The notes: generated from the letters alone by a model not told the origin. A DNA stretch of 64,000 nucleotides from an uncultured Gammaproteobacteria bacterium (GCA_965231005.1 OZ246405.1:610709-674708); one strand, 5' to 3'; positions 3,501-11,636 are shown, counted from the stretch's first letter. Made by a program: numbers and translations.

Positions 3501-3704
3501 ATTTTAGATTCTCTTGAATTTACAAGTTCTACATTGACTTCAGATAGACCTGCAACACACTGGGATGTCCGAGAAGGTCGCTTTTGTGTTCAAATGATTA
3601 CGTATGCTCGTGTAGCTAAGGATTCATCGTGTCAGGTATTTTCAACGCCATGTGATGTACCAAAGGGGTGGCAGGTCTGCGACTCCACAACAATTAACAA
3701 CTAG
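567..3704 (+). CDS. ppsA: phosphoenolpyruvate synthase-like PEP-utilizing enzyme with a C-terminal TM/lipoprotein-like extension
   Basis: 1045-aa ORF. It has an N-terminal ATP-grasp/PPDK_N-like region and the swivel phosphohistidine motif GDKTSHAAKFSSEKGIPCIVG. A C-terminal PEP-utilizer barrel region follows (VYVMCEIPS, FSLGSKD). About 808 aa matches normal PpsA length. A 237-aa extra segment then begins with a hydrophobic helix and ends 3702-3704. Confidence 0.8.
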   Translation: MAGLKKDTSLSTEKENTESLILWLEDISLDHVAVVGYKHAFLGDVYTNFSGKGISIPNAFVTTVDAYWKFLQESGIYKDINDEMKRLHVRDARSLARSGKKIRKLIMETPFSDSLEKDIIESYRMLSKESGERAIAVAVRPSVIGGGGETSGQQEAFLNIKGEKDLIQAVKKCIASLFTQQAMITRHEHAIDHLSVGLSVSVQRMINADKGVSGTVTTMDIASGFDNVCLIHALYGLGNPVSRKTSGPDEFCMFKEGVRLGYESVIGKTLGSKEHKIVSGKTKGTVIESVPEKERDSFTLIDEETFLLTTWSLIIEEQYNAPQIIEWVKESKTGNFFVLQVLPIKKKTQGTYSFFEQHILKQEGEELLRGIPVGRKIGAGTVRIINTTSDIKECKSGEVLVIQSDTNSEWEPAMNIASAIIVEYGDKTSHAAKFSSEKGIPCIVGALGLTNVLSTGDKVTVSCANAGYGVVYKSILPFEVKRTDYSNVPETKTQIMINLGDPDHAFDLSFLPTDGVGLIREESIFDNNIHVHPLALIQYKTLKNTRLKKQIADITKGYKRKTDYLVAKLAEGIGRIAASMHPNEVVFRLSDIGEDTFSNLVGAQAIQKNSPRKDFIGVDRFYSKEYKSLFEYECRAIKRARDQWGLKNIVVLIPFCKTPAEGESMLKKMARFGLKQGKDGLKVYVMCEIPSNVVLAEEFATLFDGFSLGSKDASSVALGIEDELSGADHVYNEKNKISTKVIKDVIDIAHKHGKTVGISGEIPHDYPGFTEFLIRAGIDSISLDPDAMLPAREHVGFVENTVGRKGRKMHMPVLGLLLAWGALAVGFVALGAGCGGVTTSPTISETATQEISPGAIREKLEKKIQKDKEQEIHNLTAPLSVDTFAQFRIQYPSRWGVEHWNGGLTLRDLKTGEYVSIFKQLVGHPVPDNQKRHGTVDGYPAVRYADTFSKDGSPVEVIEISFENIVLEFNTNSASIDDILDSLEFTSSTLTSDRPATHWDVREGRFCVQMITYARVAKDSSCQVFSTPCDVPKGWQVCDSTTINN
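2991..3704 (+). CDS. possible independently translated lipoprotein module nested in-frame at the 3' end of the ppsA-like ORF
   Basis: An in-frame ATG at 2991 is preceded by AAGGGAGAAAG (2980-2990). The predicted N-terminus MHMPVLGLLLAWGALAVGFVALGAGC looks like a lipoprotein signal peptide with a lipobox. No stop codon separates it from the PpsA body. Confidence 0.3.
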   Translation: MHMPVLGLLLAWGALAVGFVALGAGCGGVTTSPTISETATQEISPGAIREKLEKKIQKDKEQEIHNLTAPLSVDTFAQFRIQYPSRWGVEHWNGGLTLRDLKTGEYVSIFKQLVGHPVPDNQKRHGTVDGYPAVRYADTFSKDGSPVEVIEISFENIVLEFNTNSASIDDILDSLEFTSSTLTSDRPATHWDVREGRFCVQMITYARVAKDSSCQVFSTPCDVPKGWQVCDSTTINN

Positions 3705-3906
3705 CAATTAACAAACTAGTATAGAACGTTTCTTTAGGTTGAGGATTGTATTACTAGTTATTAGTTACTAGCTAATAGTTAATAAATATAAGAAAGATTT
3801 AAACCTAGTTAGCTAATAACTAGTAACTAGTAGCTAATAACTAATTTCTTTCTACCAAAATCACCCTATACTAAGTTGTTAATTGCTAATTGTTAGTTGC
3901 TAATTG
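3691..3906. repeat. ~216-bp AT-rich intergenic element, copy A (terminal inverted repeats, built from TAA/TAG/TTA/CTA words)
   Basis: The left end CAATTAACAACTAGCAATTAACAAACTAGTATAG is the inverted complement of the right end CTATACTAAGTTGTTAATTGCTAATTGTTAGTTGCTAATTG. The whole element is about 85% identical by eye to the reverse complement of 11419-11636. Stop codons occur in all six frames. Confidence 0.85.
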
Positions 3907-3909
3907 TCT

Positions 3910-4434
3910 ATGTTTTCATTTTTCAAAAAGAAGAAACCAATTAAGAAAAAGAAGAAGCGAGTGGTAAAAAGAAAGAGAAGGTTTCCTAAATCAAATTATG
4001 AACGGAGTAATGCCGTTCTTTCTGTTGATATTCGTATTTCTTCAAGAATGAAGTTGCTTACACAAAAAATTTTACAATCAAACACAACAGTTCGTCGTCA
4101 AAAGTTAAGTTCGCTCCTTGTTCAAGAGTTGTGTACAGGCACAAACATAGGACCAGTCAAAGTAAAAATTTCTGACAAAAAACAATATCATAAAAAATCA
4201 AAAGGGCGAGTGGTGTATCGTCAGTATGGATATTACAAATCAGATACAAAATATATTTATATCAATAACAGAACAGCAGTACAGCAAAAAATTCTTGCAC
4301 AAAAGACATTTTTAGACACATTGCTTCATGAGTGGTTACACCATTATGATTCTGAATATTTAAAACTTGATTCTATTCACACAACAGGTTTTTATACTAG
4401 ACTAAAGGATTTGAAAGGGAAGTTAGGCATGTAA
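3910..4434 (+). CDS. hypothetical highly basic protein with an HExxH motif
   Basis: ORF with ATG at 3910 (a TTG lies at 3904). The N-terminus is Lys/Arg-rich (KKKKPIKKKKKRVVKRKRR). HEWLHH lies near the C-terminus. AT-rich host-like composition. Confidence 0.55.
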   Translation: MFSFFKKKKPIKKKKKRVVKRKRRFPKSNYERSNAVLSVDIRISSRMKLLTQKILQSNTTVRRQKLSSLLVQELCTGTNIGPVKVKISDKKQYHKKSKGRVVYRQYGYYKSDTKYIYINNRTAVQQKILAQKTFLDTLLHEWLHHYDSEYLKLDSIHTTGFYTRLKDLKGKLGM

Positions 4435-4483
4435 ATTTTGTATCAAAAAAACCTTATTTTAGCAAAATATTAGCAAAAACCCC

Positions 4484-9600: not shown

Positions 9601-10644
9601 ATGCAAGAGGTCAAATTTACGATTAGCACAAAATCCTTATTTAAAATATTGGGTTTTATTTTATTTGTTTATGTAATTTATCTTATTTGGAATATTCTTT
9701 TACTGCTTTTCATCGCATTGATTCTTGCAGCACTTATAGATCCATTTGCAAGTTGGTTTCAAAAAAGAAAGATTCCTCGTTCCTTAGCAGTATTGATTAT
9801 CTATATAGTCGTCTTTGGATTAGTCAGTTTATCAATAATAGTAATTTCTCCTGTTGTCGTGCAGGACGCTCCGCAACTTGCTGACAATGTGATGAAGCTT
9901 GTTGAAGATTTACAACAAAATCCAACCATACAAAGTATTTGGGCAGGAGCACAAAATATTCCGCAAGCACTTGGTTTTGAAAACCAATCAAGTGCGCAAG
10001 TAGTAACAACACCTTCTACTGTTGCTCCAACAATTTCTGGTGTATTTTCAACAGTCTCAGGATTTTTTGGTGGGGTTTTTTCTGTTGTTCTTGTGCTTGT
10101 TATGACATTTTATATGGTGGCACAAGAAGATCCACTTAAAAAAATATTTCGAAATGTTGTTCCAGATGAATACGTTCCATATCTGACACAACTATTTAAA
10201 AAAATGCGTGACAAACTTGGAGCCTGGATGCGTGGACAAATTGTATTGAGTCTTATTATGGCAGCGCTTGTGTTTGTCGGTTTGGTTCTTTTAGATGTAC
10301 GATATGCAGCCGTACTTGCTCTTCTTGCAGCATTAACAGAATTTGTTCCATATCTTGGGCCAGTTTTTTCTGGATTACCAGCCCTCTTGCTTGCTTTCTC
10401 AGATGGTGGTATGGTGAAGTTCGCTATGGTACTGGTCATGTATGTTATTATTCATCAGTTTGAAAATCATGTCCTTGTTCCAAAGGTAATGCAACGGGCT
10501 GTTGGCCTGAATCCAATAGTCAGTATCACAGCTCTTTTAATAGGTGCACAGCTTGCTGGTTTTGTTGGAGTGCTTTTGGCAATTCCAGTTGCTACGGCTG
10601 GAAGTGTCTTTTTAAAAGATATATTTAGAAAACAAAAGGGATAA
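9601..10644 (+). CDS. AI-2E family transporter (PerM/UPF0118-like permease)
   Basis: Polytopic membrane protein with family-typical segments (LILAALIDPFASWFQKRKIPRSLAVL, FVPYLGPVFSGLPA, HQFENHVLVPKVM). Start chosen at ATG 9601. Confidence 0.8.
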   Translation: MQEVKFTISTKSLFKILGFILFVYVIYLIWNILLLLFIALILAALIDPFASWFQKRKIPRSLAVLIIYIVVFGLVSLSIIVISPVVVQDAPQLADNVMKLVEDLQQNPTIQSIWAGAQNIPQALGFENQSSAQVVTTPSTVAPTISGVFSTVSGFFGGVFSVVLVLVMTFYMVAQEDPLKKIFRNVVPDEYVPYLTQLFKKMRDKLGAWMRGQIVLSLIMAALVFVGLVLLDVRYAAVLALLAALTEFVPYLGPVFSGLPALLLAFSDGGMVKFAMVLVMYVIIHQFENHVLVPKVMQRAVGLNPIVSITALLIGAQLAGFVGVLLAIPVATAGSVFLKDIFRKQKG

Positions 10645-10648
10645 TTGC

Positions 10649-11416
10649 ATGGCAAATATTGTACATAGATCAATTGGTGTAGGAGTAGGAATATTTACTG
10701 TTCTTGCACTATTTCTTATTGTGAAGTTCCCAATTTGGTGGGTTCTTCTTTTAGTATTTATCATTTGGTTACTTATTATTCGTGGTTTCCAACATATCTT
10801 AAGAAAAATTATTTTTAGAAAGGATATCCAAATTCTCACGGTAGTAACCATGCTTGCCTTTATTGGTCTTCTTTTATTTGTTGAATGGAATTTGTTGCGA
10901 TCACTTTTGGTATTGCTTGGTGGAACAGTCATTGCGTTATTGCATTCATGGTCTGTCCCTTCCAGTGGATATACAACACATATAGAAAAGTCATACAGGC
11001 GAATTTTAATGATGCTTTGGGTGTTTGACACATATGGTATTCTTACAACATTGTTTGCTATAGATGTGTTTTTCCAAGGCTTTTCGTTTTGGCTTCTTAG
11101 TATTTTTTCAGGAGCATTATTTGCATTTGTGTCTTTTATGATTTGGAGAATGTATTATGATATTAGTTTTCGTCGAGCAACTATTTGGATGTCGTGTATT
11201 GGATTTATAGGAATTGAGCTGGTGTGGGTATTCCGATTGCTCCCGCTTGGATACACTGCCCTTGGACTATTTGTAACGTGGATATGGTATATTGTACAAC
11301 TCTTGTTTCGTTTTCATTTTAGTAAGGCAGGCGTGCAATGGAAACGACAAAGAATATTCCTTGGAGTTAATTTAATATTGTTTGTGGCACTTATGTTTGT
11401 TGTCTCATGGATTTAA
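10649..11416 (+). CDS. polytopic membrane protein, function unknown
   Basis: 255-aa ORF with about 7 hydrophobic helices. It begins 5 nt after the upstream gene. Confidence 0.6.
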   Translation: MANIVHRSIGVGVGIFTVLALFLIVKFPIWWVLLLVFIIWLLIIRGFQHILRKIIFRKDIQILTVVTMLAFIGLLLFVEWNLLRSLLVLLGGTVIALLHSWSVPSSGYTTHIEKSYRRILMMLWVFDTYGILTTLFAIDVFFQGFSFWLLSIFSGALFAFVSFMIWRMYYDISFRRATIWMSCIGFIGIELVWVFRLLPLGYTALGLFVTWIWYIVQLLFRFHFSKAGVQWKRQRIFLGVNLILFVALMFVVSWI

Positions 11417-11418
11417 AA

Positions 11419-11636
11419 CAATTAACAACTAACAATTATCAATTACCAACTTAGTATAGGGTGTTTTTGGCAGAAAGGAATTAGTTATTAGTTACTAGTT
11501 ACTAGTTATTAGCTAACTAAGTCTAGATCTTTCTTGTATTGACTATTAACTATTAGCTAATAGCTAGTAATACCATTCTCAATATAAAGAGTCTTTCTGT
11601 ACTATTTTGCTAATTGTTAATTGCTAATTGTTAATT
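11419..11636. repeat. ~218-bp AT-rich intergenic element, copy B (inverted relative to copy A at 3691-3906)
   Basis: It aligns end to end with the reverse complement of 3691-3906. Example: CTTAGTATAGGGTGTTTTTGGCAGAAAGGAATTAGTTATTAG here versus CTTAGTATAGGGTGATTTTGGTAGAAAGAAATTAGTTATTAG there. It fills the whole spacer up to the ATG at 11637. Confidence 0.85.

Follow-up and report, generated by a model that had tools for sequence, protein, structure and literature searches.

What is the palindromic element that stands in inverted orientation on either side of a run of housekeeping genes, how did it come to fill the gene junctions in which it lies, and does it act on the genes around it? We addressed this question in a 64-kb stretch of DNA from an uncultured, ultra-small bacterium (GCA_965231005.1 OZ246405.1:610709-674708; hereafter the window, to whose first letter all coordinates refer). 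In this window the initial annotation had described two inverted copies of a ~216-bp element bracketing 7.5 kb, and had interpreted them as an insertion resembling a miniature transposable element of the inverted-repeat type (MITE), or as an insulator, that might also mediate inversion of the bracketed segment. In the 83.4 kb of readable host DNA, which includes the 64-kb window and to which all copy counts refer, we identified three copies, A (3690-3908), B (11417-11636) and C (just upstream of the window). These probably constitute one family of ~216-bp non-coding, AT-rich, imperfectly palindromic dispersed repeats that is MITE-like or REPIN-like. Comparison of gene junctions with syntenic relatives shows A, B and C, as far as such a comparison can date them, to be lineage-specific insertions at tight gene junctions that took place after the split from the nearest sampled relatives.

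Three copies of one palindromic unit

The inverted relationship of A and B, estimated by eye at about 85% identity, was confirmed by proper alignment: A matches the reverse complement of B at 186 of 219 positions (85%) in a global alignment and at 86% over 215 ungapped columns, with a longest identical run of 27 nt. In direct orientation the global alignment of the two copies still gives 75% identity, a value that arises because each copy is ~75% self-complementary and that does not denote a second relationship. A search of the window with the 24-nt terminal word, with at most three mismatches, returned five matches, all five at element termini, where 100 shuffles predicted none. The element had been known from two copies only, and BLAST revealed the third, C, outside the window at L128:7472-7686 (approximately window positions -1962 to -1748, ~1.8 kb upstream of position 1). 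Copy C lies between ftsZ and nrdR in the orientation of A, with which it shares 90% identity; its identity to B is 84%. The three copies, 215-220 bp long, can be aligned over their entire length, the non-repetitive spacers between their arrays included, at 84-90% identity; they share the sharp boundaries ACAATTA...TAATTGT and score E = 1e-67 with an nhmmer profile. The G+C content of A and of B is 26%, and that of the window 39.8%.

A profile hidden Markov model of the three copies detected no further copy in 83 kb (the window with 9.4 kb upstream and 10 kb downstream). All three known copies lie inside 13.6 kb, a clustering that by our own calculation is not significant for three points in 83 kb (p ~0.07). 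A very rough extrapolation from three copies in 83 kb to a genome of 1.23 Mb would give ~40 copies, with a Poisson range of ~10-130. Identical copies occur in two independent ENA assemblies (two samples of metagenome PRJEB17505) and in Logan contigs, which rules out an assembly artefact. BLASTN against phages gave no match and against plasmids a single 51-nt low-complexity match; a scan of metagenome contigs with CTATACTAAGTTRNTAATTG and two scans of viral contigs yielded only chance matches inside unrelated coding sequence.

Each copy is built of four period-7 tandem blocks (4.3-5.0 units, 75-92% matches in Tandem Repeats Finder), arranged in the order outer (CAAYTAR)n, TAGTATAG box, inner (TTAYTAG)n, loop, inner (CTARTAA)n, CTATACTA box and outer (YTARTTG)n. 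The parts of the two copies inside the window and the adjoining codons are as follows.

3690-3908: copy A, 219 bp, 26% GC, between the phosphoenolpyruvate (PEP) synthase-like open reading frame (ORF) and orf174, oriented as C
3691-3719, plus strand: outer left array of A, (CAAYTAR) heptamers forming the left terminal inverted repeat; holds the TAG of the upstream ORF, 3702-3704
3702-3704, plus strand: TAG stop of the 1045-aa PEP-synthase-like ORF, donated by element A
3717-3724, plus strand: TAGTATAG box of A; on the minus strand an outward TATACT, on the plus strand the -10-like half of the inward TTAACA-17-TAGTAT
3751-3845, plus strand: inner hairpin of A, with the (TTAYTAG) array at 3751-3781, the (CTARTAA) array at 3813-3845 and a loop of ~25 nt
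3866-3873, plus strand: CTATACTA box of A, an outward TATACT ~38 nt upstream of ATG 3910; the scan gave no acceptable -35
3871-3907, plus strand: outer right array of A, (YTARTTG) heptamers forming the right terminal inverted repeat; ends 2 nt before ATG 3910
3910-3912, plus strand: ATG of orf174; the orthologous ATG of the syntenic relative lies 1 nt after the ppsA stop
11417-11636: copy B, 220 bp, 26% GC, in the orientation opposite to A and C; exactly fills the gap from the 255-aa ORF (TAA) to the 354-aa ORF (ATG)
11417-11449, plus strand: outer left heptamer array of B, beginning right after TAA 11414-11416
11480-11570, plus strand: inner hairpin of B, with arrays at 11480-11512 and 11537-11570
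11607-11636, plus strand: outer right heptamer array of B, TTGCTAATTGTTAA x 2.1, abutting ATG 11637
11637-11639, plus strand: ATG of the 354-aa ORF; the same junction measures -10 to +1 nt in four relatives

Most of what had been read directly from the sequence of the element stood up to measurement. The terminal inverted repeats, described as ~35 nt long, measure 34 nt (88% identity) in A and 40 nt (83%) in B, the ends are the same in C, and the inner inverted repeat spans 30 nt at 87%. The copies are predicted to fold into hairpins of ~75-83 bp (A, -69 kcal/mol, z = -7.7; B, -61 kcal/mol, z = -5.8, both against dinucleotide shuffles), and long hairpins are formed by both strands. The TATACT/TACTAT boxes reported near the ends, contained in TAGTATAG and CTATACTA, are present 30-40 nt from each end, one arm of B reading CTGTACTA instead. 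The composition of stop-codon words is likewise real: both strands together hold 54-61 stop trinucleotides compared with 37 +/- 4 in shuffled sequences of matched composition (2000 shuffles, at most 51), a ~1.5-fold enrichment over composition that extends to all six frames. The statement that stops occur in all six frames within ~20 nt holds for 16 of 18 frame-end cases, in which the first stop lies at most 21 nt from the element end; in the remaining ones the distance reaches up to 36 nt. No frame stays open for more than 66 nt, and the element has no coding capacity.

Arrays of this kind could have grown independently by replication slippage, A, B and C then being heptamer microsatellites and not copies of one element. 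Such arrays are indeed widespread: a scan of GTDB genomes with the terminal-repeat pattern CAAYTARCAAYTARCAAYTA, which is very generic, matched at least 120 stretches, mostly in cyanobacteria, Bacteroidota and Acidobacteriota and in a few Patescibacteria. Among the matches listed, 30 of 145 arrays lie at most 40 nt upstream of an ORF starting with ATG, with CAAYTAR in the sense strand in 21 and in the opposite sense in 9. Heptamer arrays beside start codons have been described as TAACTGA repeats of marine Beggiatoaceae, cyanobacteria and Bacteroidetes (MacGregor 2015, PMC4679880) and in Nostoc (bioRxiv 10.1101/2022.06.06.494920), and the heptamer-array literature also cites the long simple sequence repeats (LSSRs) of Mrazek et al. 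2007. However, non-repetitive segments, block order and boundaries are common to the three copies at 84-90% identity, and by BLAST none of the GTDB stretches among the matches listed resembles the element beyond its heptamer arrays. The arrays probably grew by slippage, which explains why the arms have unequal unit numbers but leaves the three homologous copies unexplained, and we consider an origin of A, B and C as independent arrays highly improbable.

Insertion into conserved gene order

The PEP-synthase-like protein of 1045 aa (Pfam domains PPDK_N, PEP-utilizers and PEP-utilizers_C) is only 52% identical to its closest non-identical relative, and its named matches belong to Candidatus Magasanikbacteria and 'Patescibacteria group' genomes. 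An identical protein is on record for a contig of 1.23 Mb. Judged by these protein matches, the host is a bacterium of the Candidate Phyla Radiation (CPR, Patescibacteria) near Candidatus Magasanikbacteria and without close sequenced relatives. With up to four relatives it shares the gene orders ftsA-ftsZ-nrdR-x-pyk-ppsA-orf174 and L20-L35-IF3-smpB-AI2E-25x-35x, the last two being ORFs of 25x and 35x aa (255 and 354 aa here). At the B site, the 25x-aa/35x-aa junction, the spacing is +1, -4, -10 and -10 nt in four relatives versus 220 nt here. At the A site, ppsA/orf174, the junction reads TAA-A-ATG (1 nt) in one relative versus 205 nt here; the comparison is with the single relative that keeps orf174 beside ppsA, in whose annotation the ortholog, 160 aa long and clearly alignable, was left uncalled. 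At the C site, ftsZ/nrdR, relatives have 51 and 65 nt versus 313 nt here, and their spacer consists of a terminator with an extended -10 immediately behind it. The element is absent from ~110 kb of the relatives' DNA, orthologous junctions included (one to four syntenic relatives per site).

The proteins flanking the element are 36-52% identical to those of the relatives and the element copies 84-90% identical to each other; the copies are therefore much younger than the split, and are insertions and not ancestral spacers. The stop position of the 255-aa ORF and the starts of orf174 and of the 354-aa ORF are conserved with the relatives. Two copies occupy ancestral stop/start junctions of ~1 nt and one lies between a terminator and an extended -10. 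On this comparative evidence the copies are shown to have arisen by duplication or transposition after the lineages split.

The fit of the copies to their junctions is close, and the observation that each fills a whole gene spacer and adjoins the next start codon (3910, 11637) was borne out. Copy A ends 1-3 nt before the orf174 ATG at 3910, with C/TCT left between, copy B fits exactly between TAA 11414-11416 and ATG 11637, and copy C sits between the conserved terminator and the conserved TATGGTAAAAT box of nrdR. The end of the PEP-synthase-like ORF, STTINN*, had been ascribed to the element as a whole; T-I-N-N-* is element sequence, whereas the preceding S-T is host sequence. Neither orf174 nor the 354-aa gene has a Shine-Dalgarno sequence, here or in the relatives, which argues that both were probably translationally coupled. 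Relative to the predicted hairpins, the TAG lies 12 nt inside the 5' arm of A and the ATG ~10 nt after its 3' arm, and in B the TAA and the ATG touch the two element ends.

Two observations concern the adjacent genes themselves. The product of orf174 (3910-4434) is a conserved small protein with a HEWLHH (HExxH-like) motif that carries, compared with its ortholog, an insertion of 19 residues, rich in Lys/Arg, immediately behind the start codon. Gene content from orf174 to rplT is variable: the closest syntenic relative has there (L134:17315-18772) a 159-aa ORF duplicated in tandem, along with a small antisense ORF and an RHH/ParE toxin-antitoxin pair, and different genes stand there in the window.

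The position of A and B, two 85%-identical inverted copies 7.5 kb apart, had suggested that the pair mediates programmed or frequent inversion of the segment between them. The housekeeping content of this segment is as described and includes tRNA-Asp, L20, L35 and IF3 (rplT-rpmI-infC), tmRNA (ssrA) and SmpB (smpB). However, the order and orientation ppsA-orf174 ... L20-L35-IF3-SmpB-AI2E-255aa-354aa are the same in the two independent assemblies and in the relatives covering each junction (one for ppsA-orf174, four for 25x-35x). The longest identical run of the two copies is only 27 nt, no recombinase domain was found among the bracketed genes that were scanned, and inversion would split two ancestrally coupled pairs, ppsA/orf174 and the 255-aa/354-aa ORFs. 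The proposal is thus not supported, and the chance that the pair serves as such a switch seems very slight. A composite transposon is ruled out by the synteny of the bracketed genes with those of the relatives.

Expression, mobility and tolerance

The second proposed role was that of an insulator that supplies promoters. A sigma-70 scan found in A only the inward-facing TTAACA-17-TAGTAT, in C the inward TTAACA-17-TAGTAT at both ends together with one outward site at one end, and in B no promoter-like site; except at one end of C, the outward TATACT boxes have no usable -35. Elsewhere in the window the same scan found near-consensus promoters, e.g. TTGACA-17-TATAAT at 7875-7847. In C, the terminal TTGTTA heptamer lies 17 nt upstream of the resident extended -10 (TG-TAAAAT) of nrdR, which creates a hybrid promoter-like TTGTTA-17-TAAAAT. 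Coincidence probably accounts for this hybrid, although such hexamers will be common in arrays of TTGYTAA words. A scan for intrinsic terminators (GC-rich stem and U tract) found none in A, B or C; the sole U-rich run comes after the inner stem and belongs to the sense strand in A and C and to the antisense strand in B.

A domesticated regulatory module, in which the hairpin would stop transcriptional and translational read-through and an internal promoter would restart transcription so as to uncouple formerly co-expressed genes, agrees with several of these features. The copies fill whole spacers between co-directional genes and bring stops in all frames, boxes near both ends, inward promoter-like sites in A and C and the hybrid promoter at C. 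Furthermore, stem positions vary less than loop positions (13% of paired versus 27% of unpaired columns, Fisher p = 0.014, a comparison biased by a structure taken from the same three sequences). Against such a module stand the lack of any promoter-like site in B under the same scan, outward boxes with no -35 where true promoters of the window are near-consensus, and the lack of a terminator-like site in all copies. In addition, the U-rich tail changes strand with respect to the genes between A/C and B, and the relatives all do without such a module at these junctions. The insulator that supplies promoters is therefore not supported, and we regard a domesticated module as unlikely.

The hairpin might also belong to a structured RNA gene or a processing site, e.g. 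an RNase III substrate or a small or antisense RNA, and the very strong fold z-scores and perfect helices of at least 17 bp in the inner stem would suit it. However, no Rfam family matched the element at its gathering threshold or at the E-value threshold (in the window only tmRNA and tRNA pass), and the sub-threshold matches are to plant microRNA hairpins, at 31.7 bits versus a gathering score of 74. Among the three copies, compensatory changes were found in 0 of 61 predicted pairs, i.e. there is no covariation. The fold energies of the two strands (C -58 versus -74, A -69 versus -71 and B -61 versus -63 kcal/mol) show no consistent advantage of the sense strand, and neither strand folds consistently better, which fits a palindrome at the DNA level rather than a selected RNA. 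We hold a functional RNA to be quite unlikely here.

The reading that we prefer, a family of MITE-like or REPIN-like dispersed repeats, is the part of the original interpretation that gained support, as the element is small and non-coding, has long terminal inverted repeats, is present in at least three copies and is absent from the relatives' junctions. Following the definition of MITEs in PMC11602168, its size falls within ~50-800 bp, it does not code, its terminal inverted repeats exceed 10-15 bp and the orthologous sites are empty. Several points weigh against this reading. Target-site duplications were looked for and found at none of the three copies, also with the boundaries shifted for TA, TTAA and TAA. 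The flanks (C, GATAAA|..|TATGGT; A, TCCACA|..|CTATGT; B, ATTTAA|..|ATGAAT) have no direct repeat in common, and comparison with the relatives' junctions reveals no duplication either, with some ambiguity left by the AT-rich ends and by slippage of the heptamer register. In the readable 83 kb, neither an autonomous element nor a transposase with such ends was found. Within the 13.6 kb that hold the three copies, local duplication or gene conversion is inseparable from transposition. The relatives that provide the empty sites are distant, at 36-52% protein identity, the missing compensatory changes leave selection for the fold unproven, and the way in which the element is tolerated, with coupling kept across the hairpin, is purely what we infer.

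Under this preferred reading, the element would persist at the junctions as a nearly harmless passenger. An upstream reading frame would be stopped within a few codons in any frame and for either orientation of the element, and the downstream ATG would stay untouched. When co-transcribed, the element would fold back and bring the upstream stop and the downstream start to the foot of one long hairpin; a terminating ribosome could then open the lowest part of the stem and so release the AU-rich leader (the 3' arm) together with the ATG, and downstream expression would continue. The inverted A/B pair would be a by-product of insertion in both orientations and no inversion switch. The tolerance of the element probably has two grounds: stops are provided in all frames, and the start codon downstream remains at the hairpin foot.

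A more far-reaching possibility is that the family seeks the stop/start junctions of translationally coupled genes, its perfect foldback holding stop and start together at the base of a ~80-bp hairpin and letting ribosomes re-initiate (shunt) across the 200-nt insertion. About 20 spacers of 100-480 nt in the window carry no copy, versus two of three copies at junctions that are 1 nt long or overlapping in relatives, and such a placement under uniform non-coding insertion would have p ~1e-3 to 1e-4 (a rough estimate, n = 3). With three copies and distant relatives, the preference for stop/start junctions is a lead and not a result, and we consider junction seeking by the family rather unlikely. 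If it were true, the junction-seeking foldback would represent a 'structurally silent' life of mobile DNA within operons in a streamlined genome, or else a portable device that uncouples translation. Moreover, if either junction targeting or hairpin-bridged coupling were real, the family would offer a natural test case for operon expression that survives insertions.

Neighbouring repeats and comparison with known systems

Three other spacers of the window (12702-12837, 13438-13538 and 54525-54642) were tried as degenerate members of the family and rejected, with no homology by nhmmer or BLAST and fold z-scores of -0.9 to -2.4. Two of them, 13438-13538 (z = -1.6) and 12702-12837 (z = -2.4), have weak folds, contain GGTTAATT/AGTTGATT-type words followed by their complements and abut starts without a Shine-Dalgarno sequence; the spacer 13438-13538 is 101 nt long versus 3-12 nt in three relatives and is probably another junction insertion. 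Between convergent genes, the 333-nt spacer 34617-34949 carries 39-nt inverted ATTTAAT/ATTATCT arrays around a GC-rich core (z = -5.9), the palindrome CCTGCCTGCCGGCAGG of which also forms a hairpin at 9047-9070 in the 150-nt ssrA-smpB spacer. Either a second palindromic element, unrelated to the first, or a small RNA may reside in the spacer 34617-34949. In another Magasanikbacteria-like genome (L135:7004-7297), 57-nt inverted arrays of the AAAGTTA type flank a tRNA gene with a terminator and a promoter. Arrays of (CAAYTAR)n and CTAANAA occur in many phyla, often directly upstream of ATG (L080:6728-6932, L073:3160-3400, L060:6163-6271), and some are divergent pairs around a shared promoter region (L080).

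Outside the repeats, a conserved leader of ~150 nt, GTTCGATCGGTAAACAAGT.CATAA.ATTTGTGTACTGCTTTACCGGTCG...CAAATTGACTGCGCCTG, is present at 21890-22112 and 24900-25071, where it precedes the large ORFs 22113-23402 and 25072-28593. Between the two copies, one of its hairpins seems to have changed in a paired fashion, Rfam yielded no family for either copy, and the leader may be an undescribed cis-regulatory RNA. Furthermore, a near-identical strong promoter-like sequence, ACTTGACAAAATGGT[A/C]AAAATATGGTA[C/T]AGTTT, was found in two long spacers at ~17545 and ~21725.

Proteobacteria, firmicutes, cyanobacteria and Rickettsia are well-known hosts of small palindromic mobile repeats, and the ~1-Mb genomes of CPR bacteria are usually regarded as repeat-poor; we found no description of such a repeat in CPR/Patescibacteria. 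The family shows that a CPR genome is able to take up 200-bp insertions precisely at boundaries where the genes of relatives overlap or are 1 nt apart. In practical terms, repeats of this kind break short-read assemblies and can lead gene callers astray over C-terminal tails, TINN* being an instance.

Bacterial MITEs with long palindromic bodies include Correia/CREE of Neisseria, ERIC/IRU of enterobacteria, RUP and the Rickettsia palindromic elements. Like these, the element falls in the range of ~100-250 bp, is non-coding and has long terminal inverted repeats. Like them, it also forms a hairpin over its whole length, lies between genes or inside operons where it can be co-transcribed, is able to donate stop codons or promoter hexamers and is either present or absent at orthologous sites. 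Unlike them, it has no detectable TA or other target-site duplication and no known cognate insertion sequence, its arms consist almost wholly of 7-nt tandem words with over-represented stop codons, two of its three copies lie in junctions that measure ~1 nt or overlap in relatives, and its host belongs to the CPR/Patescibacteria.

REPINs are inverted doublets of repetitive extragenic palindromic (REP) sequences mobilised by REP-associated tyrosine transposases (RAYTs) (Bertels and Rainey 2011, PMC3116915), and REPs are 20-40 bp long, GC-rich and headed by GTAG/CGTC (PMC3733652). Like REPINs, the element is a hairpin-forming inverted doublet without target-site duplication that is extragenic and often lies between co-directional genes. 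In contrast to REPs, it measures 216 bp at 26% GC and has AT-rich ACAATTA ends without a GTAG/CGTC head; no RAYT gene was seen in the 83 kb inspected. Thus the element is best called MITE-like or REPIN-like and is a member of neither family. It also differs from integron attC sites: the GTT-words at its ends (GTTAATT, GTTAGTT) do not, by eye, fit GTTRRRY, its copies stand in both orientations between syntenic housekeeping genes, and no integrase was seen among the called genes.

The remaining likeness is to the heptamer arrays. As in the TAACTGA, Nostoc and LSSR arrays, the repeats of the element are head-to-tail, of period 7 and with stop codons; they likewise stand immediately upstream of ATGs without a Shine-Dalgarno sequence, and they belong to the same word class (CAAYTAR) as the arrays of many phyla. 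The strand facing the downstream gene reads YTARTTG in the element, whereas CAAYTAR is the commoner sense in other genomes (21 versus 9 among the matches listed). Unlike heptamer arrays elsewhere, the element joins four arrays in a nested palindrome and is itself copied as a conserved 216-bp unit, and so it links two phenomena that are usually treated apart, the heptanucleotide arrays of start codons and MITE-like dispersed palindromes.

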